A stretch of 64,000 nucleotides of DNA, from contig OZ242374.1 of the NCBI GenBank assembly GCA_965209055.1, positions 2,048,001-2,112,000 on the forward strand. Direction: 5' to 3'. The notes beneath the pieces were generated by a model. The model worked only from the letters and a program-made list of their open reading frames with translations, had not been told where the DNA came from and did not search any database. Below, piece by piece: positions 8,513-24,125 of this stretch. Numbering within the stretch: position 1 is the stretch's first letter; every line of letters starts with the position of its first letter. This DNA is from Acidobacteriota bacterium. GTDB lineage: Bacteria > Acidobacteriota > UBA6911 > RPQK01 > JAJDTT01. A program made the position numbers and the translations under genes.

Positions 8513-10732
8513 GTGATCCTATTCGCAGTCGCCATCAGCCTGCTCGGCGCCCCCGAGGAACCCAGTCAGGACCGTATCAACTTCTTCGAGAAGAAGATCC
8601 GTCCGGTGCTGGCGGAGCGCTGCTACCAATGTCACTCGGCGGAGGCCGCCCGCAACGGAATGCTGTTTGGGAAACTGCGGCTCGACACGCGGGAGGGTGT
8701 CGAGCAGGGCGGATCGCGCGGCCCCGCCCTCGCGCCGGGGCGGCCCGATCAGTCGATTCTGATCGAGGCCCTCAGGCACACCGATCGCAGCCTGGCAATG
8801 CCGCCCGGCGGCAAACTGCCGGACTCGGTCATCGCTGACTTCGTCAAATGGGTGACCCTCGGCGCGCCCTATCCGGGAGATGCGCAAGCCGCCGATACGG
8901 AGAAGATGGATCTCGAGTCAGGTCGGCGCCACTGGGCCTTCCACCCCCTGCGTACAGTCGATCCGCCACAGGTCTCCCCAGCCAGTCCGGATGAGGTCGC
9001 GTGGACCGACTCGCCCATCGATCGTTTCCTTCTCGCCAGGCTGCACGAGATGCAGTTTCGCCCCGCCCAGGAGGCCGATCGGCCCACCCTGATTCGCCGC
9101 GCCTATTTCGACCTGATCGGTCTGGCGCCGGCGCCCGAAGAAGTCGAGGCGTTCGTTCGAGATCCTTCTGCGGAGCCCTTTCGCGAACTCGTTGACCGGC
9201 TGCTCGCCAACCCGCACTTCGGGGAACGGTGGGGACGGCACTGGTTGGATGTGGCTCGTTTTGGCGAGAGCAAGGGAGCCAATGAGGGGGACAACGCGAT
9301 TCGAGAGGACGCGTATCGATACCGCGACGCCGTGATTCGCGCCTTCAATGACGACCTGCCTTACGATGAGTTCGTCCGCTACCAGGTTGCCGGCGCTCCG
9401 GAAGGACTCGCCGCCGCCCGGCGGGACCTGGGCATGTTCGTTCAGATGGGAACCAACCTGAGCACGACCGAAAACCCCAATGAGCGCAAATTTCACCGCC
9501 TCGACGACATGGTGTCGGCGACCGGTCAAGCATTCCTTGCCCTGACGGTCGGGTGCGCCCGTTGCCATGACCACAAGATCGACCCCATCACCGCCGAAGA
9601 GTATTACCAGTTGACGGCCGTGTTCTTCGACCAGGCCGAGGAGGAGCCGGACTCAGGCGGCAAGTTCGTCGCCCTGGAGGTGACCTCACCTCATCTTCTG
9701 GCCGGCGGCAGTTGGGGGCGCCCCGTCAAGCCGGTCGAACCGGGGTTCCTTCGGGTCTTGATGCGGAATGGCCGTAGCGCGGAGGATTGGCGGCCCCGTC
9801 CCGAGGCCGCCGATGGCTCCGAGGCCGCCAATGGCTCCGAGACGAAGATTGAATCGCCGAAGCTTCGGATGCTTGCCAACTGGCTCACCGACGCGGAGCA
9901 CGGCGCCGGCGGGTTGCTGGCCCGGGTGATCGTCAATCGTCTCTGGCAGCATCATTTCGGACGCGGCATCGTCAGCACCCCGAATGATTTCGGCAAACTC
10001 GGCACCGAGCCCACGCACCCCGAACTGCTGGATTGGCTCGCTTCCGAACTCATCCGAGAGGGCTGGCGACTGAAGCCGATCCACCGGCTGATCATGAACA
10101 GCGCCGCGTATAAGCAGGCGGCCGGCGCCAATTCGGCTCAGGCCCAAAACGATGCGTACAACGAGTACCTGTGGCACCGCAGGCCGGTGCGCATGGAGGC
10201 GGAAATCATCCGCGATCACATGTTGAGCATCTCCGGAGCTCTTCGCACCGACCTGTACGGGCCCAGCATTCCCATCGGCAACCGCAAGAAGCCTTTCAAG
10301 GACACGCCGGACACCTGGCGCCGGTCCGTTTACCTCATGGCGGCGCGCTTGAACCTCCATCCGGTGCTGAAGATCTTCGACCCGCCGGACAACATGCAGA
10401 GCATCGGCCGTCGTGACATCAGCACGACCCCGAGCAGCACGGCGTTCATGCTGAATGCGCCGTTCGTTTGGGAGCAGGCGGAGCGCTTCGCGCAACGGGT
10501 GCGGGACAGGGTCGGAGACGACCCCGGCCGGCAGATCGAGGCGGCCTACGGAATCGCTCTTTCCCGGCGACCGACCGCGGAGGAACGCGAGATCGGCCTG
10601 TCGTTTCTCGGTCAACAGCGCGACGGCGCGTTGGAGGAAAGCGGGGACACCGGATCCTCGGATGCTCCAGGCCCATTGGTGCAGTACTGCCATTCGCTCA
10701 TGAACCTGAACGAGTTCATCTATGTTCACTGA
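8513..10732 (+). CDS. Planctomycete cytochrome c / DUF1549 / DUF1553 (PSD1) protein
   Basis: CYQCH and CARCH haem motifs, GERWGRHWLD, NRLWQHHFGRGIV, LNEFIYV. Confidence 0.92.
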   Translation: MILFAVAISLLGAPEEPSQDRINFFEKKIRPVLAERCYQCHSAEAARNGMLFGKLRLDTREGVEQGGSRGPALAPGRPDQSILIEALRHTDRSLAMPPGGKLPDSVIADFVKWVTLGAPYPGDAQAADTEKMDLESGRRHWAFHPLRTVDPPQVSPASPDEVAWTDSPIDRFLLARLHEMQFRPAQEADRPTLIRRAYFDLIGLAPAPEEVEAFVRDPSAEPFRELVDRLLANPHFGERWGRHWLDVARFGESKGANEGDNAIREDAYRYRDAVIRAFNDDLPYDEFVRYQVAGAPEGLAAARRDLGMFVQMGTNLSTTENPNERKFHRLDDMVSATGQAFLALTVGCARCHDHKIDPITAEEYYQLTAVFFDQAEEEPDSGGKFVALEVTSPHLLAGGSWGRPVKPVEPGFLRVLMRNGRSAEDWRPRPEAADGSEAANGSETKIESPKLRMLANWLTDAEHGAGGLLARVIVNRLWQHHFGRGIVSTPNDFGKLGTEPTHPELLDWLASELIREGWRLKPIHRLIMNSAAYKQAAGANSAQAQNDAYNEYLWHRRPVRMEAEIIRDHMLSISGALRTDLYGPSIPIGNRKKPFKDTPDTWRRSVYLMAARLNLHPVLKIFDPPDNMQSIGRRDISTTPSSTAFMLNAPFVWEQAERFAQRVRDRVGDDPGRQIEAAYGIALSRRPTAEEREIGLSFLGQQRDGALEESGDTGSSDAPGPLVQYCHSLMNLNEFIYVH

Positions 10733-12203
10733 CGCAGCCTGCGGAGTTCGGCCGCCTGGCCGGGACCGCCGCGGGTTCCTCAAGGAACTCGGCCTGGGCA
10801 GCATCGCGCTGGCCAGCCTGGTCGCGGATCAGAAGGCGAGCGGCGCGCCGGCCCTGCCGGCGGTTGATCTCAGCGATCCGCTTGCCCCCCGGCAGCCGCA
10901 CATCACTCCCAAGGCAAGGAACGTCATCTTCCTCTTCATGGTCGGCGGCGTGAGCCAGATTGAGACGTTCGATCACAAGCCGCTGCTGAAAAAGTACGCC
11001 GGAAAAGAGGCGCGAGAAATCTTTCCCAAGGAAGACCTGGACGGCCTGAATCCGTCGAAGACGTTCTACGACACACGCATCGTTCCTCCGGTGTTCTCGT
11101 TCAAGCGCTACGGCCAGAGCGGCGCATGGGTCAGCGAGATCTTCCCGCACCTGACGAAGGTGGTCGACGACATCACATTCATCAAATCGATGCATGCCGA
11201 TACCCCGATTCACGGGCCCGGCCAGATTCTCATGCACACGGGTTATTCCAGGCAGGGCCATCCCAGTCTCGGTTCCTGGGTGACCTACGGGCTGGGGACG
11301 GAAAACCGGAACATGCCGGGCTTCGTGGTGATGACGGACGGACGTTCCGACGGCGGGCGCGCACTTTACGATTCCGGGTTCCTCCCCGGTTACCACCAGG
11401 CCACGCTGGCGGACGTCACGCCCGGTAATCCGCCAGTACCGCACATCGAGGCGCCGGCGTTTCTGAACCCGGGGCAGCATCGCCAACAGTTGGGTCTGTT
11501 GCGGAAGTTGAATCGCCTCCACCTAGGGATGCATCCGACGCAGCCCGAGCTCGACGCGCGCATTGCTGCGTTCGAGACGGCATTTCGCATGCAGATGGAA
11601 GCGCCGGGGCTCTTCGATATCCGTAACGAGCCGGCGTCCGTGAAGGCGCTCTACGGCGACACCGACTTCGGGAGAAAGTGCCTGATGGCGAGACGGATGG
11701 TGGAGAGCGGCGTCCGCTTCGTGGAGATTCTCGACGGCGCCCACGGGCGGAAATGGGACGCCCACGGCAACCGCGGCGGGCTCATCAAGAACCACCGCAC
11801 CAACGCCGCGAGAACCGATCAGGGCATCACGGCCCTCATCATCGACCTGAAGTCACGCGGCCTGCTGGACGAGACCCTCGTCGTCTGGGCCACCGAGTTC
11901 GGCCGCACGCCGTTCGAGGAGGCGGACAGGTCGCTGACGAAGACCACCATCGGCCGCAGCCATCACCATTACGGCTTCACCATGTGGATGGCGGGCGGAG
12001 GCGTCAAACGGGGGATCACCTACGGCGCCACCGACGAACTGGGCATGCACGCCGTCAAGAACCGAGTCTCGCATCACGATTTTCACGCCACCATCCTCCA
12101 CCTCCTGGGTCTGGACCACGAACGGCTCACCTACCGCCACAACAGCCGCGATTTCCGCCTCACCGACGTCTACGGCAACGTCGTCCACGACATCATCGCC
12201 TGA
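10722..12203 (+). CDS. DUF1501 (sulfatase-like) protein, Tat motif
   Basis: RRGFLK, GGVSQIETFD, TEFGRTP, RLTDVYG; coupled to PSD1 gene. Confidence 0.92.
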   Translation: MFTDAACGVRPPGRDRRGFLKELGLGSIALASLVADQKASGAPALPAVDLSDPLAPRQPHITPKARNVIFLFMVGGVSQIETFDHKPLLKKYAGKEAREIFPKEDLDGLNPSKTFYDTRIVPPVFSFKRYGQSGAWVSEIFPHLTKVVDDITFIKSMHADTPIHGPGQILMHTGYSRQGHPSLGSWVTYGLGTENRNMPGFVVMTDGRSDGGRALYDSGFLPGYHQATLADVTPGNPPVPHIEAPAFLNPGQHRQQLGLLRKLNRLHLGMHPTQPELDARIAAFETAFRMQMEAPGLFDIRNEPASVKALYGDTDFGRKCLMARRMVESGVRFVEILDGAHGRKWDAHGNRGGLIKNHRTNAARTDQGITALIIDLKSRGLLDETLVVWATEFGRTPFEEADRSLTKTTIGRSHHHYGFTMWMAGGGVKRGITYGATDELGMHAVKNRVSHHDFHATILHLLGLDHERLTYRHNSRDFRLTDVYGNVVHDIIA

Positions 12204-12211
12204 TCAGCCGA

Positions 12212-12263
12212 GGAGGGGCGACTTTCCAATCGCCCTCTGGGAGCGGCGACCTTCTTGTCGCCG
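12212..12263. repeat. Two GGAG-type REP palindromes
   Basis: GGAGGGGCGACTTTCCAATCGCCCTC and GGAGCGGCGACCTTCTTGTCGCCG. Confidence 0.7.
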
Positions 12264-12404
12264 ACTTCCGTGCGCTGTCAGCCATACAAGAAGGGAACAC
12301 TCACCTCCTCTCTCTCGTAGGGTCCCTCAATTGTGCTAAAGCAATCAGATTGAACCAAAATAAAGCGATATGCTATATATATTGAGGTCGCGAGCAGGGC
12401 GAAT

Positions 12405-12665
12405 ATGTACCGGTTGACGATACGGAAGCACGCCTTCAAAACCCTGCGAAGAATGCGATCTCGGGATGCTCACCGCGTGCGGGTCGAATTGGACAAGCTA
12501 GTCCCCAATCCCAGTGCCCGGGACGTGGACGTCACACCGTTGCGGGGCCGTCCTGGCTTTCGGCTGCGGGTGGGCCCGTGGCGGATCATTTTTGAGCAGA
12601 ACGAAGAGGCCCGAGTCATAGACATCCTGCGCATCGGCCCACGGGGCGATATTTGCAAAAACTAG
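12405..12665 (+). CDS. RelE/ParE family toxin
   Basis: LRGRPGFRLRVGPWRIIF...IGPRGDI. Confidence 0.9.
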   Translation: MYRLTIRKHAFKTLRRMRSRDAHRVRVELDKLVPNPSARDVDVTPLRGRPGFRLRVGPWRIIFEQNEEARVIDILRIGPRGDICKN

Positions 12666-12674
12666 GAGGGGGCC

Positions 12675-13046
12675 ATGACCAAACCACAAGTTATCCTCGA
12701 CGATGGCGGGAACCCGGCATTCGCCGTGATCCCGTGGCGGGAGTACACTCGCTTGGCGATGTTGGATGTCGCCGCGGGGCTAACCGACGAAGAGCTTTAC
12801 GATCACGCCAAGTCTGTGGGGGGAGAGTCTTTTCCAATCGAGTTGGTGGATCGCCTTCTGGCGGGAGAGAACGCTGTCAGGGTATACCGGGACCATCGCG
12901 GCATGACTCAGAAGCAGCTCGCCGGTGCCGCTGGTATCAACCCCCTCTATCTGTCACAAATAGAGAGGGGCGTCCGCACCGGCTCGGCTCGAACCTTGGC
13001 CGCGCTCGCCGAGGCGCTCGGCGTCGACGTGGACGACCTGATCTGA
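12675..13046 (+). CDS. XRE-HTH antitoxin
   Basis: GNPAFAVIP N-terminus, RGMTQKQLA...YLSQIERG HTH; GGAGG RBS. Confidence 0.9.
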   Translation: MTKPQVILDDGGNPAFAVIPWREYTRLAMLDVAAGLTDEELYDHAKSVGGESFPIELVDRLLAGENAVRVYRDHRGMTQKQLAGAAGINPLYLSQIERGVRTGSARTLAALAEALGVDVDDLI

Positions 13047-13181
13047 TTCACATGGAGATTTATCAGGAGAAGGGGACAGCCACCCCCTCTCTGCGAGCCG
13101 TATACACCACTGCCCCACCTTCTCGAGCCTGCGCGGCATCATGCAAGCGGCGGCTTTAGGGAACGGTCACGTTCTCGTTCT

Positions 13182-13481
13182 GAGCTCGGCCGAACGGCAA
13201 TGGAGGAGGCGCGTACGGAGGAATCCCTCGGCCGCGGCCATCACCACTATGGCTTCACCATGTGGATGGCGGGCGGCGGCGTCAAGGCAGGGATCACCTA
13301 CGGTGCCACCGACGAACTCGGCATGCACGCCATCAAAAACCGAGTCTCGCATCACGATTTTCACGTCACCATCCTCCGCCTCCTGAGCCTGGACCACGAA
13401 CGGCTCACCTACCGCCACAACAGCCGCGACTTCCGCCTGACCGATGTCTACGGCAACGTCGTCCACGACATCATTGCGTGA
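13182..13481 (+). pseudogene. 3' fragment of a DUF1501 gene
   Basis: Near-identical to the ends of 10722-12203 and 14365-15837; also copies the downstream TGATC..CCGAGGAGGGGCGA. Confidence 0.9.
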
Positions 13482-13586
13482 TCGACCGAGGAGGGGCGAT
13501 TGCTAAAGTCTACACATCCTGGCCTTGATTGCAATGCAATCACGGTGTAGCTTAAAGGCGGGAACGGAAGCAGTGGAGGCGTAGCG

Positions 13587-13832
13587 ATGGCGAGCATTAC
13601 GATCCGCAAACTTGATGACGAGGTTAAAACACGGCTGCGCATCAGGGCGGCCGAGAACGGGCGTTCAATGGAGGAAGAAGCACGGATCATTCTGCGTGAG
13701 GCGGTTGATTTGGAGGCAGCCCCGAAGAAGGGGCTGGGCGCGGCGATCCACGAACTGTTCAGGCCCTTTGGCGGTGTGGAACTGGATATACCGCCGCGCG
13801 AACCGATGCGTGAGCCACCTGGATTCCATTGA
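13587..13832 (+). CDS. FitA-like RHH antitoxin
   Basis: MASITIRKLDDEVKTRLRIRAAENGRSMEEEAR. Confidence 0.92.
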   Translation: MASITIRKLDDEVKTRLRIRAAENGRSMEEEARIILREAVDLEAAPKKGLGAAIHELFRPFGGVELDIPPREPMREPPGFH

Positions 13833-13843
13833 GAGGGCGGCTG

Positions 13844-14266
13844 ATGATTGTTCTGGACACCGATGTCGTCTCGGAGTTGATGCGTGACAATCCGTGGCCC
13901 GCTGTTTTCGCTTGGGTGAACGACCAGTTGGTGCGCAATCTGTTCGTGACGGCGGTGACCGAAGCGGAGATCCGCGCTGGCATCGCTTTTCTGCCCGAAG
14001 GCAAGCGGCGCCGGGGTCTCGCCAATGCGGCCGAACGCGCCTTTAGCGAGTTGTTTTCTGGTCGCGTGCTGCCTTTCGACGGCGTGGCGGCTCGCTCCTA
14101 TGCGGAGATCGCTGCGCAGCGGCGCAAGGCGGGCCGACCGATTGCACAGGCCGATTGCCAAATCGCTGCCATCGCCCATTCTCGGGGCGCGGAGGTGGCG
14201 ACAAGAAATGTTCGGGATTTCATGGGGACAGGGATCGATATCATCGACCCCTGGGTGGGCAGATGA
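13844..14266 (+). CDS. vapC: VapC/FitB PIN toxin
   Basis: MIVLDTDVVSEL, DCQIAAIA, ATRNVRDF, DPW. Confidence 0.92.
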   Translation: MIVLDTDVVSELMRDNPWPAVFAWVNDQLVRNLFVTAVTEAEIRAGIAFLPEGKRRRGLANAAERAFSELFSGRVLPFDGVAARSYAEIAAQRRKAGRPIAQADCQIAAIAHSRGAEVATRNVRDFMGTGIDIIDPWVGR

Positions 14267-14318
14267 GTTTTTCCGTGATGCAAGGGCTCACTCTTCGGGG
14301 GACAGTCATCTCCTCTCT

Positions 14319-14375
14319 CCTGTACAATACCGTCACACCTTCACGAGCCTGAGCAGGTTCATCCATGTTGACTGA
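14319..14375 (+). pseudogene. Degenerate 3' remnant of a PSD1 gene
   Basis: PVQYRHTFTSLSRFIHVD* parallels LVQYCHSLMNLNEFIYVH* at 10676-10732, with the same overlap onto the DUF1501 start. Confidence 0.75.
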
Positions 14376-15837
14376 CGCAAGCTTTGGAACTCGACCGGTC
14401 GGTTGGGACCGCCGCGGATTCCTCAAGGAACTCGGCTTGGGCGGCATCGCGCTGGCCAGCCTGCTCACGGACCGGACGGCGAGCGGTGGGCCGGCCGTAC
14501 CCCCGGGTGACCTCAGCGAGCCGCTTGCGCCCAAGCAACCACACTTCGCCCCCAAGGCGAAGAACGTCATCCTCCTGTTCATGGTCGGCGGCGCGAGCCA
14601 GCTTGAGACCTTCGATCACAAGCCGCTTCTGAACAAGTACGCCGGAAAACTGGCCCGGGAAATCTTCTCCAAGGAAGACCTGGAGGGCCTGAACCCGGAG
14701 AAGGACTACACCAACACCCGCATCGTTCCGCCGGTGTTCTCGTTCAAGCGCTATGGCCAGAGCGGAGCTTGGGTCAGCGAGATCTTCCCGAACCTGACGA
14801 AGGTGGTCGACGACATCGCGTTCATCAACTCGATGCACACCGATTCGGCGATCCATTCCACCGGCCAGATCCTCATGCACACGGGCTATTCCGTACAGGG
14901 CCACCCCAGTCTCGGCTCTTGGGTGACCTACGGGCTGGGGTCGGAGAACCGGAACATGCCGGGATTCGTGGTGATGAAGGACGGCCTTCCGTCCGGCGGG
15001 CGTGCGCTTTACGATGCTGGATTCCTTCCGGGGATCCACCAGGCCACGCTGGCGGACGTCGAGCCTGGAAAGCCGCCCGTGCCGCACATCACGGCGCCGG
15101 AATTCTTGAGCCGAGGCCAGCAGAGCAAGCAATTGGATCTGGTGCGGAAGTTGAATCGCCTCCACCGCGGCATGCACGCCACTCAGCCCGAGCTCGACGC
15201 GCGCATCGCGGCATTCGAGACGGCATTCCGCATGCAGATGGAAGCGCCGCAGCTCTTCGATATCCGGAACGAACCGGAGTCGGTGAAGGCGCTCTACGGC
15301 GACACCGACTTCGGGAGGAAATGCCTCACGGCGAGACGGATGGTGGAGAGCGGCGTCCGTTTCGTGGAGATTCTCGACGGCGCCCAAAGGCGATGGTGGG
15401 ACGCGCACGGCAACCGCGGCGGACTCATCAACAACCATCGCAAAAACGCGGCCCGCACCGATCAAGGCATCACGGCCCTCATCATGGACCTGAAGTCACG
15501 CGGTATGCTGGACGAGACTCTCGTTGTCTGGGCCACCGAGTTCGGCCGTACCCCGATGGAGGAGGCGCGTACGGAGGAGTCCCTCGGCCGCGGCCATCAC
15601 CACTACGGCTTCTCCATGTGGATGGCGGGGGGAGGGGTCAAGCCGGGGATCACCCACGGCGCCACCGACGATCTCGGCATGCACGCCATCAAGGACCGCG
15701 TCTCCCACCACGATCTCCACGCCACCATCCTCCACCTGCTAGGCCTGGATCACGAGCGGCTCACTTTCCGCCACAATAGCCGCGACTTCCGTTTGACAGA
15801 TGTCTACGGCAACGTCGTGCATGAGCTGATTGCCTGA
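14365..15837 (+). CDS. DUF1501 protein, paralog of 10722-12203
   Basis: High similarity to the first copy; RRGFLK, TEFGRTP. Confidence 0.92.
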   Translation: MLTDASFGTRPVGWDRRGFLKELGLGGIALASLLTDRTASGGPAVPPGDLSEPLAPKQPHFAPKAKNVILLFMVGGASQLETFDHKPLLNKYAGKLAREIFSKEDLEGLNPEKDYTNTRIVPPVFSFKRYGQSGAWVSEIFPNLTKVVDDIAFINSMHTDSAIHSTGQILMHTGYSVQGHPSLGSWVTYGLGSENRNMPGFVVMKDGLPSGGRALYDAGFLPGIHQATLADVEPGKPPVPHITAPEFLSRGQQSKQLDLVRKLNRLHRGMHATQPELDARIAAFETAFRMQMEAPQLFDIRNEPESVKALYGDTDFGRKCLTARRMVESGVRFVEILDGAQRRWWDAHGNRGGLINNHRKNAARTDQGITALIMDLKSRGMLDETLVVWATEFGRTPMEEARTEESLGRGHHHYGFSMWMAGGGVKPGITHGATDDLGMHAIKDRVSHHDLHATILHLLGLDHERLTFRHNSRDFRLTDVYGNVVHELIA

Positions 15838-15868
15838 TAGCGCGAGAGAAGGGGACGGTTACCTTTCT

Positions 15869-16867
15869 CTACTCAACTGGCACCCACTCCAAATCTGCGC
15901 CGTGAGGGTGCGCGAATCCGAGGATATTCGCGGTCTGCATCCCCTCGTGGGCGATGGACCGTCCCAGTAAGAATTGAAGCGGTGCCGGAGGCGGCGCAAA
16001 TGATGAGATATGTGGAGATCCCCAGGCACCTTCGTTCGATATCCAGACAATGTCCCGGTGTCGCGAGAATTCTGTGATGATCCGGGCAAAGGATTGGCGC
16101 CGCTCAGGGCCCACGTACGGAAACAGCGCGGAATGGAATACGACCAGCGTCGCGCCGGGCGGCGCCTCATCCAGGACCTTCGGCAAATCATCAACCAGAT
16201 CACCGTGACGAACAGATAGCGACTGTTGCCTTCCCACTTCAATTGCCGCCGCCAATCGTTCGCGCCGGTCGGGGTGGTCGGGCCAGACGCAAGCCAGCAG
16301 CCAACGGACGTCGGAAGGATCATCAAGATCGACTGGGGCCGTGTCGAGTCCACAACGCCACACAATCTGCGGAATCATGATTCGGGGGCGCAAGTACCCG
16401 CGCAAACGACAACGTAGTCGGACTGGGGACTCGCTGTCACCAATCTGAAGCGATCCGTAGTCGTATCTGTACTTGTCCAACATCAGGCACAATCCGGCGC
16501 TTGCGCCCACCTCGACCAGTGCCAGAGGTCCTGCGGGCATTGCCGGCAGCAATACGGCGCAGCGGCCGACCTCATTCGTCTGCGTTCGGCGCAATCTCAT
16601 CAGTTGAGCGACTTCGCCTTCATGCTCCCTGACGAAGCTGCTCAGTTCAGAACCGCTCATCGGCATTTCTTCCGGACCGGTCAGGAATTGCACCGACGCG
16701 AAGAACAGGTTGGGCTGCTGGTCTGGCATCAGGGAGATGAACTTGGGCAGGTAATCGTCTTGTGCGACAGCGTGGGAAAGCCGGAAGTAGGCGGCAGAAT
16801 ACCCAGCGCACTCGTCCTCCGCAAACCGTCGAAATCGCAGTCGAACGTGCTCAGTGGTGTCGCTCAT
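15869..16867 (-). CDS. DUF2332 family protein
   Basis: TQTNEVGRCA, LVEVGASAGLCL, WLLACVWP, SNEG. Confidence 0.85.
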   Translation of the reverse strand: MSDTTEHVRLRFRRFAEDECAGYSAAYFRLSHAVAQDDYLPKFISLMPDQQPNLFFASVQFLTGPEEMPMSGSELSSFVREHEGEVAQLMRLRRTQTNEVGRCAVLLPAMPAGPLALVEVGASAGLCLMLDKYRYDYGSLQIGDSESPVRLRCRLRGYLRPRIMIPQIVWRCGLDTAPVDLDDPSDVRWLLACVWPDHPDRRERLAAAIEVGRQQSLSVRHGDLVDDLPKVLDEAPPGATLVVFHSALFPYVGPERRQSFARIITEFSRHRDIVWISNEGAWGSPHISSFAPPPAPLQFLLGRSIAHEGMQTANILGFAHPHGADLEWVPVE

Positions 16868-16957
16868 CTGAGTTCAGTTGGGAAAAGAGCAAGAACAGGG
16901 GGCAGTCGCCAAGATGGGTGGAGGCGCCTACAGTTCGCGCCGAAAAATGGCAGTTGT

Positions 16958-17263
16958 TCAGGCGGGTACATAGCGCTGGACGGTGATCTCGCTTGCACGG
17001 GCACGCATCTGCGAGGCGTCGTACCAGGCCTGTATCCGCAGCAGCATATCCATGCTCACGTCAAACGCCTTTTCGATTCGCAAGGCCATCTCCGGCGATA
17101 ACGCAGCCTTGCCGTTGAGCAAATCCGAAAGCGTCGCCCGGCGAACTCCCAGGATCTGGGCCGCCTTCGTCACAGTCAGACCCAACTCCTCGATGACCTC
17201 TGTACGGATGAAGTCGCCCGGATGGGAAGGGGTCATGTTCACTTTGATTCCATGGGTCGCCAT
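16958..17263 (-). CDS. higA: HigA family antitoxin
   Basis: PSHPGDFI...ALSPEMALRIEKAF...QAWYD. Confidence 0.92.
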   Translation of the reverse strand: MATHGIKVNMTPSHPGDFIRTEVIEELGLTVTKAAQILGVRRATLSDLLNGKAALSPEMALRIEKAFDVSMDMLLRIQAWYDASQMRARASEITVQRYVPA

Positions 17264-17555
17264 CAGTGGTAATCCTCCAAGTTCAAGCGGTCAATGTAGC
17301 CGTCCTCTTCCTCAAATGTGATCCGCCAATTTGCGGAAACCGAAATGCTCCATTCATCCCGTCGGTTACCTGAGAGCCGGTGGACACGCCAGCCGGGCGG
17401 GGGGAGCCGGCAATAAGCCCGTCGATGTGTTCGGCCAGGATCAGTACCGTCAAAATCTTGCGCACGCGATCAACCAGATTCTGCCGCAGGAACCGAGGAT
17501 TGTTCTGTTCGATCAGCCGACGCAATCCTCGGTGCCGGACAGAGCGAATGTCAAT
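17263..17555 (-). pseudogene. higB: HigB toxin, frameshifted, ATT at the start position
   Basis: DIRSVRHRGL in one frame; PGWRVHRLSG...SVSANWRITF...EDYH* in another; shift near the G6 run at 17399-17404. Confidence 0.85.
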
Positions 17556-17842
17556 GTCGAAATTGTACGGTGATACCGTTCGATTCGGCAAGTCCTTTAT
17601 CGGCGAAGACACTGCTGAGACTCTCGCTTACACGTTGTTCAAAGCTCCAGCAGTTGTCTTCGCCACGCCATGCCCGCCACGCCAGCAGGGAACTGTCACC
17701 TTCACCACTCTTCGCCCCGGCGAACCATGCTTTGTCGTCCAGACGGATTTTGTGGGTTCACAAAATCGCGGTTCGCGGGTCATATAGGGAAAAGGGCGGG
17801 CGAGCGCGATCCGGTTCGACGTACTTCCGGCGGCAAAACCAT

Positions 17843-18343
17843 ATGAGGTTATTCACGAAGAAACCGGCCGATATCAGCGCCAAGGCCGTAGACGATTACG
17901 GACGGCTGGTCCTCAAGGTCGCCTACAGGATCGTCCCCAACGCCGATCAGGCTCAGGAGATCTTCCAGGAGACCTTCCTCCGCTTCCACGCCGCTTGCAC
18001 CCGCGGCGAGGTGATCGCCTATCCCAAGGCGTGGCTCTGTCGAGTGGCGACCAACGTTGCCTTCAACGCGCGGCGCCGGCAGCGGGCGATGTTGGGAATA
18101 GAAGAGGACACCGCGGTGGACTCCAACGCCGACAGAGACGTGGAGCGTCGCGTGCTCTTGGACCGGGTGCGCGACTTGGCATCGGACTTGCCCGATCGCC
18201 AGCGCACCGTCTTCGCCCTGCGCAACTTCGAGGGATGTACCTACGCCGAAATTGCGGCGCAACTGGGGTGCAGCGTGGGTGCGGCAAGGTCCAGCGAGTA
18301 CAAGGCACTGAGAAAAATCCGAGCTTCGATGAACACCGGCTGA
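17843..18343 (+). CDS. ECF RNA polymerase sigma factor
   Basis: AQEIFQETFLR, WLCRVATN, LPDRQRTVFALR, YAEIA. Confidence 0.92.
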   Translation: MRLFTKKPADISAKAVDDYGRLVLKVAYRIVPNADQAQEIFQETFLRFHAACTRGEVIAYPKAWLCRVATNVAFNARRRQRAMLGIEEDTAVDSNADRDVERRVLLDRVRDLASDLPDRQRTVFALRNFEGCTYAEIAAQLGCSVGAARSSEYKALRKIRASMNTG

Positions 18344-18356
18344 GAGGAACAGGACG

Positions 18357-20039
18357 ATGAACAGAATTGAATTCGAGAGAAAACTGAGCGACTACGTGCG
18401 GGGCGAGTTGCCGAATGCAGTCTCGCGGGAATTCGATGACTATCTGGCCGCTCACCCCGAAGCGGCCGCGGACGTAGAGGGAGCACGCACCATCCTGGAA
18501 CTAAGTGCCGACATTGGCGCGTCGGAGCCACCCCCCCAACTCCTGGCGGCGGCCCGTGCCGGCACCCTGAAGGCGATTCGCTCGGAGGTCGAACTACCGC
18601 GGCGTTCGGGATTCTGGCTGGCGTTGCCGCGGCCGGCCTGGGTGTCGGCGCTCGCTGTCGCACTGGCTGCCCTGTTTCTCGGCGTACTCTGGCGCGGTTC
18701 GTCCACTCCGGTGTGGGCTCAGGTCGTCCAGGAAGTGCGCAACGTCTCATCGTTGCGCACCGTGGGCTGGTTTCGCGGGGAAAATGGAGAACGGGTGCCG
18801 ATGAAGCACTGGTTCAAAGCCCCGCACAATTTCCGTGCAGAGATAGGTGCTGGCCCGGACCAGCAAGTGGTTTTCTCCGATGACAAGTCCGTCTACACGA
18901 AGATTCGGGGCGTCTGGTATCGGAAGGACCACACTTCGCCGGCAGCATCTTTCGTGGATGATTTCAGCAGGCATCTGTTGCTGCCCGAGCGCGAGCTACT
19001 TGAGGAATTGTCCTATCAGATCGATCGGGAGGATCGGGGACAGACAGTGGTGTTTTCGATCTGGCGACGCTCCTCGCTGGGCAGGAAGACACCATCGGAC
19101 ATCCGGCTTGAAATCGAGGCAGACGTGCTGACGCGGCTGCCTCGCTCTGCCCGCGTTTATCTGGACGTGGGTCAACAGGAATGGGAGCTGGTCAACGAAC
19201 TGCATTATCTGGATTACGATGCGGCGGTGGCTGGCGAACTCTTTGAATTCGCCGGCGATGACGTCCTGCCGGCTCCCGACAAATTGTGGAAGGCAGACAC
19301 GATGGTCGGCGCGTTCGCTCCGTTTGGGCGTTGGTACGATCTCGCGTTCTACATGCCGCTGAAGGGGATGGAAATCGTGGTCCTGACCCCTTCGACCGAC
19401 TCTACCAAGGGGAATAAAGGTATGTCGTCTACGGTGAGTGGCGGAATCGTACGCTACGAATTTCACCGTACACCGCTGACGGAGATCGCTCAGACTCTAG
19501 CAGACATCCCGGTGGAGATTCCGGATTCTGGACTGTCTGAACGGCGTTTTTCGACGCGGATTGCCCACCGAATCACTATCGACCCCGCGGAGCGGGTGAG
19601 GCGCCTTGGCCAGCGCCTCGGCTTTGTCGCCGAAGTAATAAAGCGTCAGGGAACAAGGACCCGCTGGATCCTCATCCAAGACGGAACCAATTTCCCCATC
19701 AGCGCAGCCCGGAATAGATCATCCGGAATCGATGGGTACAGCCTCGACGCCAAAGGGGAAACTCTCGCTGCGGCAATTCGAAGCATGCTTGGACTCGCGG
19801 CAACCAACGAACTGGTCAAGGGCTACAACGAGTTTCTCGACGAATTCGAGATGAAATGGGACGGTGCGGCAGCGGACAATCCCTTCCACCGCAGGGTGGA
19901 CATTTCCGTCGATTTTTCCGATGGCTGGGAGGTGGCACTCAAATACCTGCGCGAGAACTTCGGAGTGACCATGGAGCGAGTCTCCGAACCCACCACCTAC
20001 GAGGTGCTGGTGTTGTCTCCCCGCAACGAAGCCGGTTGA
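18357..20039 (+). CDS. Membrane-anchored anti-sigma factor with large periplasmic region
   Basis: LSDYVRGEL N-terminal ASD, TM helix, WAQVVQEVRNV / LolA-like segment; follows the ECF gene. Confidence 0.75.
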   Translation: MNRIEFERKLSDYVRGELPNAVSREFDDYLAAHPEAAADVEGARTILELSADIGASEPPPQLLAAARAGTLKAIRSEVELPRRSGFWLALPRPAWVSALAVALAALFLGVLWRGSSTPVWAQVVQEVRNVSSLRTVGWFRGENGERVPMKHWFKAPHNFRAEIGAGPDQQVVFSDDKSVYTKIRGVWYRKDHTSPAASFVDDFSRHLLLPERELLEELSYQIDREDRGQTVVFSIWRRSSLGRKTPSDIRLEIEADVLTRLPRSARVYLDVGQQEWELVNELHYLDYDAAVAGELFEFAGDDVLPAPDKLWKADTMVGAFAPFGRWYDLAFYMPLKGMEIVVLTPSTDSTKGNKGMSSTVSGGIVRYEFHRTPLTEIAQTLADIPVEIPDSGLSERRFSTRIAHRITIDPAERVRRLGQRLGFVAEVIKRQGTRTRWILIQDGTNFPISAARNRSSGIDGYSLDAKGETLAAAIRSMLGLAATNELVKGYNEFLDEFEMKWDGAAADNPFHRRVDISVDFSDGWEVALKYLRENFGVTMERVSEPTTYEVLVLSPRNEAG

Positions 20040-20303
20040 ATCCAGGCGAGAGGGCAGGAGGAGGGGGCGGGTCGGGAAGCGGTGACTGTCATCTTCTTTA
20101 CTCCTACCCGCTGATATCAAACAGCCAACGCATCCCCGCGCCCCGAGTTGGCGCCCGAACCCCAAGGAGAGTCGAATGGCGGCGATGCCATCCAGGAGGC
20201 TGCGTCCTCTAACCCAACCCCCATTCGACTCGACGTTCCCTGGATGAGCCTTGATCGCGCCACAGGAAAAGATATATTTTGTAGATACAAAAGGAGACTG
20301 TCC

Positions 20304-20543
20304 ATGGGTGCACAATCAAGAATCTGCAAATGGGGGTCCAGCTTGGCCGTCCGCATCCCCAAGCCTATCGCCGAGCAGTGGGGAGTGCATGAGGGCACCG
20401 CCGTCGAGATGGTCTCGCGCGGAAACCAAGTCATACTGCGCAAGAAGAACTACAGCTTGGCCGACATGCTGGCGACCGTGACGGAGGAGAATCTGCATCC
20501 CGAGGTGGACACCGGACCCGCCCAAGGCAATGAAGCATGGTAA
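20304..20543 (+). CDS. mazE: MazE antitoxin
   Basis: KWGSSLAVRIPK...YSLADML...GNEAW; AAGGAG RBS. Confidence 0.93.
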   Translation: MGAQSRICKWGSSLAVRIPKPIAEQWGVHEGTAVEMVSRGNQVILRKKNYSLADMLATVTEENLHPEVDTGPAQGNEAW

Positions 20544-20890
20544 AGAGGTCCTACGTCCCCGGAAACGGGGATATCGTGTGGCTGACCTTCAACCCTCAAG
20601 CCGGACATGAACAAGCCGGACGCCGCCCGGCCCTGGCGCTGAGCCCGAGAAGCTACAATCGGAAAACCGGCCTCGCCCTATTCTGCTCCATCACCTCCCG
20701 AGCCAAGGGTTACCCCTTCGAGGTCGTTCTTCCTGTCGCCGGCGCCGTCACCGGCGTTGTTCTGGCCGACCGGATCAAGAGCCTGGATTGGCGGGCCAGG
20801 CGGGTCCGTTTCGAATCGAAGGCGCCGCCCCGGGTGGTGAGCGAAGTTTTTGCCAAGCTGGCTGTTCTCTTGGATCAAAATCGATCCTGA
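20537..20890 (+). CDS. mazF: MazF endoribonuclease toxin
   Basis: FNPQAGHEQAGRRPA, KGYPFEV, KSLDWRAR. Confidence 0.94.
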   Translation: MVKRSYVPGNGDIVWLTFNPQAGHEQAGRRPALALSPRSYNRKTGLALFCSITSRAKGYPFEVVLPVAGAVTGVVLADRIKSLDWRARRVRFESKAPPRVVSEVFAKLAVLLDQNRS

Positions 20891-20992
20891 GCCGCGCCGA
20901 AAACGGAATCCAATCGAACCGGCGGAGAAGGACAGTCACCTTCACTATGAGACAAGCGGACTCAGCCCTGATGGACTGCTGGGTCGAGATCG

Positions 20993-21799
20993 GTGGTTCC
21001 AGAGGGAGTGTGCTATCTGACCAACGAATCGAGTGAGCGCTTCGACAAGATCGCCGCCAACTACGCGACCAGCGAAGTCCACTCCATGAGTCCGACGATC
21101 CGGCTTCTTCATCAGCTCGTGAATCTGGAGGCCGGGGCATCCATATGCGATATGGCTTGTGGCGCCGGCCACCTGGCGCTGTCCTTTGCCACCCGCGCCG
21201 GGAGACTCGTCGGAGTTGACCCTGCACCCGGCATGTTGGACGCCTTTCGGCGCTTGGCGGCGCAGCGGGGGATCGAGGTGGAGCCGGTCGAGGCGTACGC
21301 TGAATCGATTCCCCTGCGGGGAGACCAGTTCGACTTGGTCGTATCGCGGCTGGCTCCCCACCACTTCCATGACGTGGATCGCGCGGTGGCGGAGATGGTT
21401 CGGCTCACGAAGATCGGCGGGCGGGTAGCGATCATCGATCTCGAAGGACATGAAAACGCTGACATCGACGAGTTCAACCACAAGCTGGAAGTTCTCCACG
21501 ATCCAACCCACATTCGGAGCTACACGGCCGCGAGGTGGAGATCCATGTTCGAGAGCAGTGGGCTGAAGGTGGAGGTGTTGAAGAACGGATTGTCGGAGCG
21601 GCCGCAGGGGACGACCGTGGGCAGGTGGTGCGAGATAGGATCCTCTGGCACGGAGGCGGAAGCGGAGATCAGAGCCAGTCTGAAGCGGGCCCCGAATTCA
21701 TTCCTGGAGGCCTTGAACATCAGACGGTTGGGGGGAGAGTTTCTGTTGCCCATACGGACTTTGTTGATCGTGGGAACCAGGGATACCGCCCACAGGTGA
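20993..21799 (+). CDS. Class I SAM-dependent methyltransferase (start uncertain, 20993-21017)
   Basis: DMACGAGH, FDLVVSRLAPHHF, DPTH. Confidence 0.88.
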   Translation: MVPEGVCYLTNESSERFDKIAANYATSEVHSMSPTIRLLHQLVNLEAGASICDMACGAGHLALSFATRAGRLVGVDPAPGMLDAFRRLAAQRGIEVEPVEAYAESIPLRGDQFDLVVSRLAPHHFHDVDRAVAEMVRLTKIGGRVAIIDLEGHENADIDEFNHKLEVLHDPTHIRSYTAARWRSMFESSGLKVEVLKNGLSERPQGTTVGRWCEIGSSGTEAEAEIRASLKRAPNSFLEALNIRRLGGEFLLPIRTLLIVGTRDTAHR

Positions 21800-21847
21800 C
21801 GGGAAAAGGAGACAGCGAAAAGGGGACAGTCACTTTTTCCGGGGAGA

Positions 21848-22012
21848 GTATTCCGGGACCATCGCGGCATGACCCAGAGGCATTTGGCTGGTGCGGCTGG
21901 GATCAATCCCCTCTATCTGTCGCAGATCGAGAGGGGCGTCCGCACCGGTTCGGCTCGAACCTTGTCCGCCCTCGCAGAGGCGCTCGGCGTCGACGTGGAC
22001 GACCTGATCTGA
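21848..22012 (+). pseudogene. 3' fragment of the XRE-HTH antitoxin (copy of 12882-13046)
   Basis: Colinear 165-bp match; keeps a 47-aa ORF MTQRHLAG...VDDLI from 21869. Confidence 0.88.
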
Positions 22013-22124
22013 CCCACCTTCGGTTTCTTCTCCCTGGCCAGGGTGCTAATTTCGATATAGCTGTCTTTCATGCCGGTTTTCGCCCGACCACGATTGGCAC
22101 AACTGTCCGCTACGGAGGTCTGCC

Positions 22125-24125
22125 ATGAGACTGATCCAGGTTTTCTGCTGCTCTCTTCTTATTATCGCCTCATCCTGCACGGGTCCTTCCGCTCCCGATC
22201 CGGAAACGGCCCGTAGGCTCTATCAGGAGTCCATGTCTCTCGATCGGGATGATGACGCCGATCGAAAGCTGGAACTTCTCCGGCAGGCGGTCGAACGCCA
22301 CCCGGAGTTCACCGAGGCACACCGGGAAATCATCCGTCTCACCGAAGACAAGGTTCTTCTGCGCCAGGAGTACGAAGCTCAGGTCCAGGAGAATCCGGAC
22401 AGTGCCGTCTTCCACTACCTGCTTGGCGAAGTCGCCGAGAGCGACATGAAGCGGGCCCATTACGAGAAGGCGGTCGAATTGGGTCCCGGCTCCACCTGGG
22501 GCTATCTGGGTCTGGGCGAGTTGATGGAAGACCGCGGGTCCTTTGACGAGGCAGTCACCAACTACCAGAGGGTCCTGGAGCGTGACCCGGCGAGTGAACT
22601 CGGCCATCGGGGATTGGCGCGCACCTACGGACGCATGGGCCGCCGGGAGGACGAAATTGCCGCCTACCGGAAAATGATTTCCGAACTACCGGATGTGGCC
22701 CGCGGCTATTGGGGACTCAAGCGCGCCTACGAGAAGGCGGAGCAGGAGAGTGAGGCCGCAAGTCTCCTGCAGCAAATCTATGAGCGGTTCAGGTCCGATC
22801 CCGACAATGGAGGCTTAGCCCTGTACCAGTTGGCGGAGTCTTTGGAGAACCAGGACGAGAAAGTCCGGCTCTGGAATCGCTTCATCGAAGACTATCCCGC
22901 GGGTCCCAATATTGTGCACGTCTACAATTCCCTCTTGGAACACTACGTGGAAACGGATCCGGAGAAGGCGGAAGCCCTCGCCCGGGAGTGCCTGGAGAAA
23001 GAAGCACTACCGGGTGACAAGAGGCTCAAGGACTATGCCTACGAAGCCTTGTTCGATCTCTACCGGAAGTCCGGAGAGGCTGATAAGGAGTCACGCCTCG
23101 TAGAGGAACTCCTGGAATCGGATTATCCGAATCCGATGACGTATACACAGGTCGCGATCCACTACGCCAAGGAGGAGCAGACGAAGCTTGCCATCCGGTT
23201 CCTCGAACGAGCCCTCGATTTCGCGAACCCGGAGAGTGTCCACGGGACCGTTCTCTTCACCGGCGGAAAGCCGAGGCGAGAGATGCTGGAAGAAGTGGCG
23301 GGACAAGTGCGAACCGGGGTTTCCTACGAGTTGGGCAAGGTGCTCAACAAGAATCGGAGACACCAGGAGGCAATCGCCGTGCTTCTGCCCGTGGCAGGTT
23401 TATGGGATCGAGCGGGGGATCTGATCCATCTTGAACTTGCCGACGCCTATGAGGCCGCCGGCCAACACCAAGAGGCGCTCAAGCACTACGCCAGTTCCCT
23501 GATCGACTACTTGCACGATCCCGCCCGGAAACCGCTGGAAACCCTGTTCGCAAGGGTGCACGGTTCGATTGACGGTCTGAACCAGTACGTCCTCGACCAC
23601 GTGACTCAGCCCAGGACCGGGGGAAGCGTGGCCCTCGGCGTGCCGACGGCACTCAGTCTGGACGAGGCCATACTGAAGGCGCGCGGACTATCCTCCGGAG
23701 AGGCTCCGGAATTCAATCTGGAGACTCTGGAGGGCGAAAGCGTCAGGTCGTCGGATCTCAAGGGCAAGGTCGTGGTCCTCGACTTCTGGGCCACGTGGTG
23801 CGGACCTTGTATCGAGGAACTTCCCCAGTTCCAGGCGACGGTCGATCGCTGGGCGGACCGGCCCGAAGTGGTCTTTCTCGCCGTCAGCGTGGACGAGGAT
23901 GATGATGTGGTCCGCAGGTTCATGACCAAGAACGATTACGATTTTCCGGTCGCCCGGGACGGCAAGGTCGACGATGATTACGGAGTGTCCGCCATACCGA
24001 CGATCGTGCTCATCGGCAGAGAAGGCCGGATTCAGTACCGGCACGTCGGGTTCGATCCGGACGCGGACCTCACCCAGAAGCTGAGTGACGAGATCGGTTT
24101 CCTGCTGGGCGCGGGCGTGTCCTGA
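22125..24125 (+). CDS. TPR-repeat lipoprotein with C-terminal TlpA/redoxin domain
   Basis: Lipobox-like ASSC, TPR helices, DFWATWCGPC, IPT. Confidence 0.88.
   Translation: MRLIQVFCCSLLIIASSCTGPSAPDPETARRLYQESMSLDRDDDADRKLELLRQAVERHPEFTEAHREIIRLTEDKVLLRQEYEAQVQENPDSAVFHYLLGEVAESDMKRAHYEKAVELGPGSTWGYLGLGELMEDRGSFDEAVTNYQRVLERDPASELGHRGLARTYGRMGRREDEIAAYRKMISELPDVARGYWGLKRAYEKAEQESEAASLLQQIYERFRSDPDNGGLALYQLAESLENQDEKVRLWNRFIEDYPAGPNIVHVYNSLLEHYVETDPEKAEALARECLEKEALPGDKRLKDYAYEALFDLYRKSGEADKESRLVEELLESDYPNPMTYTQVAIHYAKEEQTKLAIRFLERALDFANPESVHGTVLFTGGKPRREMLEEVAGQVRTGVSYELGKVLNKNRRHQEAIAVLLPVAGLWDRAGDLIHLELADAYEAAGQHQEALKHYASSLIDYLHDPARKPLETLFARVHGSIDGLNQYVLDHVTQPRTGGSVALGVPTALSLDEAILKARGLSSGEAPEFNLETLEGESVRSSDLKGKVVVLDFWATWCGPCIEELPQFQATVDRWADRPEVVFLAVSVDEDDDVVRRFMTKNDYDFPVARDGKVDDDYGVSAIPTIVLIGREGRIQYRHVGFDPDADLTQKLSDEIGFLLGAGVS

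Follow-up and report, generated by a model that had tools for sequence, protein, structure and literature searches.

A short imperfect dyad recurs between the gene modules of a 64,000-nucleotide stretch of DNA, hereafter the window (G000:C1:2048001-2112000), in the genome of an uncultured member of the Acidobacteriota (6.08 Mb, 62.8% G+C, single contig). We consider it very probable that this dyad is a REP (repetitive extragenic palindromic)-like repeat of a RAYT (REP-associated tyrosine transposase)-like family of Y1/HUH transposases. The explanation that we favor for the findings as a whole, with a probability of roughly 0.65, is that these REPtron-type repeats are preferred crossover or breakage points in variable islands. 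Three observations carry this explanation: the dyad forms a genome-wide repeat family, it is linked to Y1 genes, and it is in excess at breaks of synteny. The system is new in sequence and in host, and it is atypical in having no GTAG foot, a weak stem, single co-oriented copies and a location in hypervariable islands. An earlier reading of the window, made from the letters alone (the sequence-only reading), had taken the region 12288-21840 for an integron-like cassette array in which the dyad stands in place of attC sites. Its description of the punctuation, the orientation, the breakpoints and an association with a Y1 enzyme has stood, and its proposals of cassette capture and of a motif specific to the array have not.

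How widespread is the dyad? Fourteen sequences in the window match GGGGACAGTCACC with at most two mismatches; 100 dinucleotide shuffles gave 2.93 on average and at most 9, so that none came to 14. Nine of these 14 matches fall within 12293-21834, and the ten copies that had been listed for that region all exist, at or within 1-3 bp of the positions given for them. The motif had been taken as private to the array; it is a family that extends over the whole genome, where the 13-mer has 14 exact occurrences and 55 with at most one mismatch. The 10-mer head GGGGACAGTC occurs 118 times in G000, against 11.1-18.0 expected under order-3 and order-5 Markov models, and 70 of these 118 heads are intergenic, that is, within the 14.6% of the genome that lies outside our rough gene calls. 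The sites are strongly clustered: 73 of 99 strong sites have a neighbor within 5 kb (14.6 ± 4.7 for random positions), and they form about a dozen clusters, including those at 2.00-2.09 Mb, which contains the window, at 2.77-2.80 Mb and at 3.19-3.24 Mb. A position weight matrix (PWM) was used as a broad detector of further copies. On iteration it drifted to a symmetric GGGGACAGTCCCC consensus in which the subtypes were merged; the key claims were verified with exact or one-mismatch cores.

The consensus of the family is approximately GAGAAG-GGGAC-A-GTCAC-CTTCTC, with a center of 1 nt. Among 167 distinct copies, the inner palindrome GAC-A-GTC is invariant and is paired in 156-163 of them; the left arm is purine-rich and the right arm pyrimidine-rich, and the two are complementary in part. 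A conserved G-against-A asymmetry at position 4, present in 118 of the 167 copies, gives each site a polarity. The arms covary at position 8 (paired in 128 copies, with 103 expected) and at position 10 (122, with 96 expected), and across the same copies position 9 shows no covariation above independence.

The link to a transposase family is seen at the Y1 genes themselves. A search of G000 with the Pfam model Y1_Tnp (PF01797) returned two matching genes. The first (L002 883-1992, minus strand) encodes a protein of 369 aa with the HuH motif NHYHL and the tyrosine motif YVELNAVRAGL, scores 36.8 bits (cut-off, 23), and is bracketed by inward-pointing copies of the motif. Six paralogues of this protein are found in G000, one of them with two TGA stops; three of the six copies are near-identical in protein and one is broken. 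The family proteins are 320-370 aa long, and the catalytic motifs NH(Y/F)H and YVELN(A/P)(V/I)RAG are kept in all six. Motif heads lie within the flanking 700 bp at all six loci, with GGGGACAGTCT(G/A)TT-type heads upstream on the strand of the gene and AGGGACAGTCTCGA-type heads downstream on the opposite strand. The same arrangement is usual in related genomes: among 50 loci, a plus-strand head lies within 600 bp upstream at 48, a minus-strand head within the same distance downstream at 44, and heads on both sides at 44; the opposite arrangement of heads is found at 5 and 7 loci. Because the motif flanks all six Y1 genes and 44 of the 50 loci of relatives in inverted orientation, we assign it to a REP/REPtron-like family. 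The sequence-only reading had proposed a recombinase acting in trans, for example a RAYT-like HUH/Y1 enzyme; as an association this is borne out by six Y1 genes elsewhere in the genome with inverted flanking copies. The 369-aa protein has no match to the IS200 TnpA model (NF033573), and a sequence search of solved structures gave unrelated proteins, with a best E-value of 0.15.

The second Y1 gene (L001, G000 1,141,470-1,144,703) encodes 252 aa with the HuH motif NHVHV and the tyrosine motif YIRENPEKAGL. Its protein reaches 77.4 bits on the NCBIfam RAYT model, the cut-off of which is 80, and the gene is flanked by a distinct, classical hairpin repeat, GGGCGA..TCGCCC. In G000, GGGCGA-N6-10-TCGCCC has 151 copies (reversed control, 4) and GGCGAC-N5-9-GTCGCC has 105 (reversed control, 11). 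This repeat family, whose hairpins are strong, is also represented at window 12215-12262, with a cut copy near 13491-13499.

The repeat and the Y1 genes also occur together across genomes. All nine genomes of the genus contain 17-66 copies of GGGGACAGTCAC, for which a reversed-pattern control gave 0, and all nine contain Y1 homologues at 70-82% identity, with 4-12 Y1 gene matches per complete genome, some near-identical or broken. In the sister genus, the Y1 homologues are only 44-56% identical and the motif copies number 0-3. G023, a genome of the same order but of another family, has 20 copies in all, and the exact motif flanks its two Y1 genes, which are 76% identical. The remaining 25 genomes searched, among which we counted the unpublished G016 (it enters only these co-occurrence tallies), have 0-11 copies. 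The relatives are not independent of one another, and the co-occurrence amounts to two lineages.

Where the dyad lies relative to breaks of synteny was examined in seven syntenic regions, that of G000 and those of six complete related genomes. Two anchors delimit the variable part: the PSD1-DUF1501A block (window 7438-12205) and a 666-aa gene (from ~22035). Between them all six relatives differ: their 8-29 kb contain different toxin-antitoxin pairs and different enzymes, the methyltransferase module stands elsewhere, and most spacers have motifs. In pairwise comparisons of the seven regions, 512 distinct ends of homology blocks are intergenic. Of these, 120 are no more than 5 bp from a strong dyad, where an even spread of the ends would give 26, a coincidence that counts for less insofar as BLAST ends may be drawn onto shared repeats. 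A second comparison, of flanks, is independent of block ends; its controls are random intergenic positions in the same regions. Both 80-bp flanks were colinear in the other genome in 16 of 210 comparisons at motif sites and in 39 of 210 at control positions, and in 38 of 594 comparisons for the full motif set. The sequence-only reading had predicted that synteny breakpoints in relatives would coincide with the motif. Because they do, neither of the two outcomes that it had named as speaking against it, an absence of enrichment at module boundaries or a lack of coincident breakpoints, was observed. Copies lie at rearrangement points about three times as often as other spacer DNA. A second island (3.222-3.242 Mb) is likewise mosaic, and in it, by our own reading, five of seven motif copies lie at block ends.

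Could the copies be no more than markers of places where change is tolerated? According to this alternative, which we regard as quite improbable, copies pile up where insertion does no harm, and toxin-antitoxin mobility, insertion sequence (IS) elements and recombination between paralogues drive the change; the coincidence with breakpoints would then reflect a common location together with alignment artefacts. Several features agree with it. The copies are old and have decayed where they stand, half of the block ends have no motif nearby, and the DUF1501 paralogues and their leaders offer long homology for unequal crossing-over. IS-like multicopy elements are also present inside the second island. 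The comparison of flanks with controls from the same regions argues against it: once one flank was found, colinearity was about 70% at control positions and 21-31% at motif sites, so that the conserved side of a motif is usually without a conserved other side. Moreover, truncated genes directly abut the dyad in at least five places.

In the second island, the two IS-like multicopy elements lie at L109 6340-7540 and 9462-10854 (G000 3,228,339-3,229,539 and 3,231,461-3,232,853). For the 1.2-kb element there are ~29 more copies, which are 93-100% identical, and for the 1.39-kb element two more, at 100% identity.

The layout of the array is given below, one feature per line, in coordinates of the window; bits are PWM scores, and blocks are stretches of homology to the related genomes named.

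4702 to 4724, plus strand: motif copy (GCGGACAGACC variant, 22.3 bits) in the spacer between a BNR-repeat gene and an HTH (helix-turn-helix)-HigB pair.
5496 to 5518, plus strand: motif copy whose core, at 5501-5513, is exactly GGGGACAGTCACC (motif search and PWM); blocks to G001, G002, G005 and G007 begin at 5494.
7315 to 7337, minus strand: motif copy in the opposite orientation (24.9 bits).
7437 to 7459, plus strand: motif copy 5′ of the PhyH-PSD1-DUF1501A block (22.1 bits); blocks to six relatives begin at 7438-7440.
8513 to 12203, plus strand: conserved left anchor, with PSCyt/PSD1 at 8513-10732 and DUF1501 gene A at 10722-12203 (Pfam); colinear in six relatives at 87-92% identity.
12215 to 12262, no strand: two hairpins, recognized by sequence, of the second, unrelated repeat family (GGGCGA..TCGCCC and GGCGAC..GTCGCC).
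12288 to 12310, plus strand: motif copy (GGGAACACTCACC; motif search and PWM) at the left edge of the ParE-HTH module; a block to G004 begins at 12291.
12405 to 13046, plus strand: ParE-like toxin (12405-12665) and HTH antitoxin (12675-13046; Pfam), a module that is absent in G003 and 5′-truncated in G005, G007 and G001.
13067 to 13089, plus strand: motif copy (GGGGACAGCCACC; motif search and PWM) followed by a DUF1501 leader; a block to G002 ends at 13078.
13154 to 13176, plus strand: weak motif copy (16.3 bits; the 13159 core has three mismatches to the 13-mer) inside a DUF1501 remnant, at the junction of an internal deletion (self-BLAST); the remnant has 5′ codons from 13141 and its 3′ part, the last 300 bp, at 13182-13481, with the dyad exactly at the jump.
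13518 to 14287, plus strand: FitA (13587-13832) and PIN/FitB (13829-14266) module (Pfam).
14293 to 14315, plus strand: motif copy (GGGGACAGTCATC; motif search) with the leader of DUF1501 gene B; the core at 14298 has one mismatch and a pyrimidine-rich left flank, and blocks to five relatives begin at 14298-14300.
14365 to 15837, plus strand: DUF1501 gene B, which matches gene A at 84% identity (self-BLAST).
15846 to 15868, plus strand: motif copy (GGGGACGGTTACC, 24.5 bits); blocks in G004, G005 and G007 end at 15869-15874.
15869 to 16867, minus strand: DUF2332 gene (Pfam).
16893 to 16915, plus strand: decayed motif copy (GGGGGCAGTCGCC; motif search); this weak copy at 16898 is orthologous to stronger ones in G001 (19.2 bits) and G003 (18.5 bits).
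16958 to 17612, minus strand: HigA-like HTH gene (16958-17263; Pfam for the HTH) and a 109-aa open reading frame (17283-17612) with no Pfam match.
17683 to 17705, plus strand: motif copy (GGGAACTGTCACC, 18.8 bits) at the head of the ECF module; blocks to G001, G003, G005 and G007 begin at 17687, and orthologous copies reach 27.6 bits.
17843 to 20039, plus strand: ECF sigma factor (17843-18343; Pfam) and a putative anti-sigma protein of 560 aa (18357-20039) with no Pfam match.
20076 to 20098, orientation ambiguous: motif copy (GATGACAGTCACC on the minus strand; motif search and PWM); blocks end at 20066-20103.
20304 to 20890, plus strand: MazE (20304-20543) and MazF (20537-20890) module (Pfam).
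20923 to 20945, plus strand: motif copy (AAGGACAGTCACC; motif search and PWM).
20950 to 21803, plus strand: methyltransferase module (gene 20993-21799; Pfam).
21817 to 21839, plus strand: the best motif copy (GAAAAGGGGACAGTCACTTTTTC, 29.8 bits); block ends also lie at 21839-21842 and 21845.
21845 to 22012, plus strand: 3′ fragment of an HTH antitoxin gene abutting the dyad, 89% identical to 12879-13046 (self-BLAST).

Pfam thus confirmed the gene content proposed from the letters, namely ParE with an HTH protein, FitA with a PIN protein, two DUF1501 genes and a fragment, DUF2332, a HigA-like gene, an ECF gene, MazEF and a methyltransferase. The placement of the dyad at module boundaries was likewise upheld: by our own count from the motif and PWM scans, 12 of the 16 inter-module spacers of at least 30 bp in window 3517-22125 contain a copy. 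Since spacers from 3517 on also carry copies (~4702, 5496, 7315 and 7437), the array starts further left than had been described. The copies of G000 are the most degenerate of the seven regions, with a mean PWM score of 20.6 bits compared with 22.6-24.6 bits in the relatives.

How might these islands have been rearranged? We propose that each Y1 gene lies in a REPtron-like unit, with inverted heads on either side, and that solo copies have colonized spacers in a small number of hypervariable islands rich in toxin-antitoxin genes, where they would serve as preferred crossover or breakage points. Either of two processes might operate: cleavage by the transposase with strand transfer on single-stranded DNA, or host recombination between direct repeats of 25-45 bp. 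In both cases, modules would be deleted, duplicated, truncated or swapped beside the copies. A Y1 enzyme would presumably recognize and cut these copies. That the repeats are a cause of rearrangement, we suggest only tentatively; if so, they would not be mere markers, and the Y1 enzymes might move whole modules.

Junctions in the relatives show the kinds of change that any explanation must accommodate. First, in G003, DUF1501A, a single motif and DUF1501B follow one another with no ParE-HTH module, whereas in G002 and G004 the ParE-HTH module lies between motif-containing direct repeats that share 26-45 bp. Second, truncated genes abut the dyad: in the window at 13154-13176 (the 3′ part of DUF1501) and at 21817-21839 (the HTH 3′ fragment), and at G005 9393 and G007 21472, where the dyad abuts an HTH gene cut at the equivalent of window position 12740-12741. 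In G001, the motif comes directly after mazE, and there is no mazF. Third, in G002, G003, G004, G005 and G007 the methyltransferase module is located elsewhere, at another position or locus. On its 3′ side, the whole dyad is common to G000, G001 and G008, whose sequences part directly past its right arm.

These junctions bear on a more specific alternative, a dedicated integrase-free capture system in which circles composed of a motif and its downstream gene or genes are re-inserted at motifs by a Y1/HUH enzyme in trans. Units of motif plus gene would be released by a cut on the 5′ side of one copy and joined to a second copy, giving chromosomal cassette arrays without an integrase. We consider such a true cassette-capture mechanism unlikely, although a number of observations agree with it. 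The copies of the array are co-oriented. The motif keeps its 3′ side more often than its 5′ side: the 3′ flank of motif sites was found in 76 of 210 comparisons and the 5′ flank in 51 (57 for the 5′ flank and 53 for the 3′ flank at control positions), and 100 of 259 block starts but only 41 of 254 block ends lie at a motif. Direct, co-oriented copies enclose the mazEF module three times: in the window, in G023, and in G004 at an unlinked locus. G003 on the one hand and G002 and G004 on the other could represent an empty and a filled site, with the motif duplicated on both sides of the insert. The methyltransferase module, as noted, occupies varied positions in arrays and unlinked loci, and in G007 it abuts a Y1 gene, the motif on its 3′ side being the upstream repeat of that gene.

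Against capture stands the imprecision of the ends. No constant crossover point was seen, module ends lying 8 to ~70 nt from the motif, and at one G005 locus the motif upstream of the methyltransferase module is inverted. Cassettes are found on either strand, with leaders of their own. Modules also travel without a motif: the fitAB DNA of window 13518-14287 is 89% identical to G023:C1:300,856-301,624, in another family of the order, and its sequence suggests that the FitA/PIN module has undergone recent horizontal transfer on its own. The empty and filled sites fit deletion between direct repeats equally well; because both motif-plus-leader units at the DUF1501 genes are paralogous, ordinary recombination could give the states of G003, G002 and G004, and either origin would account for them. 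Contigs of four metagenome runs compared with window 11000-23000 gave no circular or joined forms and no motif excision joints, although rare forms are invisible in contigs; noise from DUF1501 paralogues dominated the contig joints. Because the distances from motif to module vary and some modules have no motif, precise site-specific capture is unsupported, and with neither an excision product nor a precise crossover seen, the integron-like capture proposed by the sequence-only reading is not upheld.

Parts of the stretch are present in sponge and coral-reef metagenome runs. In one sponge run (X1), a 7.6-kb contig is colinear with 15884-21841 and then continues with 368 nt where the window has 132 (21841-21973). 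The extra sequence comes directly after the motif at 21817-21839, which hints at variation at the motif.

Several results weigh against the explanation that these REPtron-type repeats are preferred crossover or breakage points, or against parts of it. As regards the identity of the repeat, the covariation of the arms is modest and could reflect lineages of copies; the minimum free energy of folding is only slightly below that of shuffles (−7.95 versus −6.03 kcal/mol as RNA and −3.48 versus −2.78 kcal/mol as DNA, for 82 copies and mononucleotide shuffles); and there is no GT[AG]G foot in the consensus or in the copy lists. The 369-aa protein aligns with positions 3-145 of the 146 of the NCBIfam RAYT equivalog NF047646, and its score of 51.9 bits does not reach the cut-off of 80. 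Solo copies in the window are mostly of the ...GTCAC(C/G/T) subtype, and none of the six Y1 genes of G000 is canonically flanked by the ...GTCAC subtype of the window; such flanking is limited to relatives (G023 and a few loci of the genus). As regards rearrangement, 277 of the 512 intergenic block ends are separated from the nearest strong motif by over 60 bp. The left end of the methyltransferase module (~20950) is 8, ~30 or ~70 nt from the nearest motif, and the fitAB locus of G023 has no motif within the 8 kb examined. In 37 of the 38 comparisons in which both flanks are kept, the site is occupied or has decayed in place, and a single one looks like a clean absence; because the copies are old and stay put, recent mobility is unsupported, and a polymorphism in which the motif alone is present or absent was rejected. 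Finally, because the relatives share ancestry, p-values overstate the evidence.

The orientation of the copies offers a further guide to function. The sequence-only reading had stated that nine of ten copies share one orientation regardless of the strand of the genes. The uniformity and its independence of gene strand hold; the one copy called reverse, at 20081, is ambiguous, with a near-palindromic core that, when read on the plus strand, has the customary purine-rich left flank and a CTTCTTTACTCC right flank. Over the seven syntenic regions there are 83 plus and 10 minus copies, many of them orthologous, and neighboring pairs genome-wide have the same orientation in 17 cases and the opposite one in 4. 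Neighboring genes are co-oriented with the motif in 51 of 81 cases (63%) on its 3′ side and in 46 of 75 cases (61%) on its 5′ side. Because this equals the background strand usage of 61%, we conclude that orientation is a property of the island and not of gene strand. A bias by replication strand was rejected: the two GC-skew arcs hold 20 plus and 17 minus copies and 7 plus and 11 minus copies, respectively, on a noisy skew.

These figures also bear on whether the dyad might be a regulatory or transcript element, such as a terminator, an attenuator, a promoter or an operator for HTH or ribbon-helix-helix antitoxins. Its dyad symmetry, its location in spacers at a median of 101 bp from a co-oriented downstream start, and a cargo rich in HTH and ribbon-helix-helix regulators are what such an element would show. 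We nevertheless regard this role as extremely improbable, given the background-level orientation, the cluster at 2.004-2.023 Mb, where the copies are plus and the genes minus, and the occurrence of the same motif as inverted pairs around Y1 genes. An intrinsic terminator was rejected, as the consensus has no T-run and the orientation is independent of gene strand. A strong hairpin or RNA element is unsupported by the weak folding energies and the background-level orientation, and a search of the window with Rfam matched only a tRNA at 56898-56984 and nothing at the dyads.

An integron was rejected as well. Genome-wide, no match to TIGR02249 exceeds 78.8 bits (cut-off, 265), and no match adjoins the array. 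A crude regular-expression scan for attC-like R″..R′ box pairs found 2, against 1.2 ± 1.5 in shuffles; both are a single site within DUF2332 read on both strands. The statement in the sequence-only reading that the array has neither attC sites nor an integrase is accordingly sound at the level of such a scan. A Xer or other tyrosine recombinase system was rejected because the center of the dyad is 1 nt, and not 6-8 bp between 11-bp arms. Of the matches to tyrosine recombinases (~30 genes), 4 of 33 lie within 12 kb of a strong motif, compared with 16.6% at random.

A tyrosine-recombinase-like multicopy gene of ~390 aa is present in ~30 places in the genome and at window 48101-48769 (minus strand); its tyrosine-recombinase C-terminal matches give ~38 bits on TIGR02249, well short of the cut-off. 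Two of its copies adjoin Y1 genes, at 1,143,945 and 3,141,214.

To which described systems is this repeat closest? The sequence-only reading had spoken of an undescribed system; REP/RAYT pairs, or REPtrons, are an already described kind. Like the REP/RAYT systems (REPtrons, REPINs; TnpA_REP class 2), the family consists of many short imperfect palindromes, mostly extragenic, and a Y1/HUH gene lies between inverted copies, with several paralogues each having its own repeat subtype. The tyrosine signature is Y---NP or Y---NA here, and that of class-2 TnpA_Y1 is Y---NP (10.1101/279083). Copy number follows the presence of the cognate Y1 gene, a trend also reported for REPs (PMC3390384). Unlike REPs, which are defined by a conserved 5′ GT[AG]G at the foot of the hairpin (PMC3733652), the dyad has no such foot and a weak stem, and its copies are singletons in direct orientation and not inverted doublets. 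RAYTs are typically single copy (PMC5581495); in contrast, each complete genome of the genus has 4-12 Y1 matches. The proteins here have a long C-terminal extension and miss the NCBIfam cut-off. In fluorescent Pseudomonas, variable regions are described as "REP deserts" (PMC3390384), whereas the copies here are concentrated in hypervariable islands. A resemblance to the atypical Y1 families of Acidobacteria and Planctomycetes, class 3 and "TIRYT/TIRtron", lies in the shared phylum, the atypical GTAG-less flanks and copy numbers that look partly like those of IS elements and partly like those of REPtrons. As described, these families nonetheless differ: class 3 has a Y..Q tyrosine motif and a CnGA foot (10.1101/279083) and TIRYT genes are flanked by long terminal inverted repeats (PMC3733652), whereas here we find Y---N(P/A) and the head GGGGACAGTC.

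The array resembles integrons in its small accessory modules, its one co-oriented site-like repeat and a content that varies between relatives. It differs from them in having no IntI, a dyad of 23-25 bp with a 1-nt center, cassettes on two strands with leaders, and imprecise ends. The attC sites of integrons are 57-141 bp long, with R″/L″-L′/R′ boxes. The closest analogue in possible working is the pdif/Xer module. A pdif site has 28 bp, with 11-bp arms and a 6-bp spacer, and such sites alternate in orientation. Unlike pdif, the dyad has a 1-nt center and co-oriented chromosomal copies, and tyrosine recombinase genes are not near it. In Acinetobacter plasmids, pdif sites are described as short dyads, recognized by an enzyme encoded elsewhere, at the edges of discrete modules that often carry toxin-antitoxin genes and are shuffled between replicons (PMC6449649, PMC13141974). 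With IS200/IS605 elements the family shares Y1/HUH chemistry, unit ends that differ (TGTT/TATT upstream, TCGA-type downstream) and near-identical or broken copies; unlike them, it has no IS200 equivalog match, no tnpB, inverted ends and no replichore bias. The ends of IS608 are co-oriented on one strand.

Textbook REPs mark stable core DNA and keep out of variable regions, and the family found here lines toxin-antitoxin-rich variable islands instead. The present system is a testable one: its site of 23 bp is defined, six genes encode candidate enzymes, and both "filled" and "empty" sites occur naturally. It bears on what REPs and their domesticated transposases do for the cell, on whether Y1/HUH enzymes move or rearrange host genes and on how islands are built in uncultured symbionts that have no integrons. 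If module capture were true, it would imply a function for REP/RAYT systems in structuring accessory islands, and an HUH counterpart of integrons and pdif modules. Sponge-associated Acidobacteriota would then carry cassette arrays of accessory genes, toxin-antitoxin genes among them. A literature search, with limited terms, on RAYT or REPIN together with cassettes, integrons and toxin-antitoxin systems returned no description of REP-bounded cassette arrays.

Some further copies of the motif lie outside the array. After the 666-aa gene, at window 24126-24217, the motif is present in G005 and G007, and the version in G000 has decayed by several substitutions; the G005 copy has been duplicated along with 9 bp of the end of the gene. 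At G000 1,751,920-1,752,474, ~20 GGAAATGGGGACAGTCCCGATCTC-type copies form a tandem run with a period of ~25-30 bp, and comparable multi-copy clusters of the motif adjoin the Y1 genes of G023.

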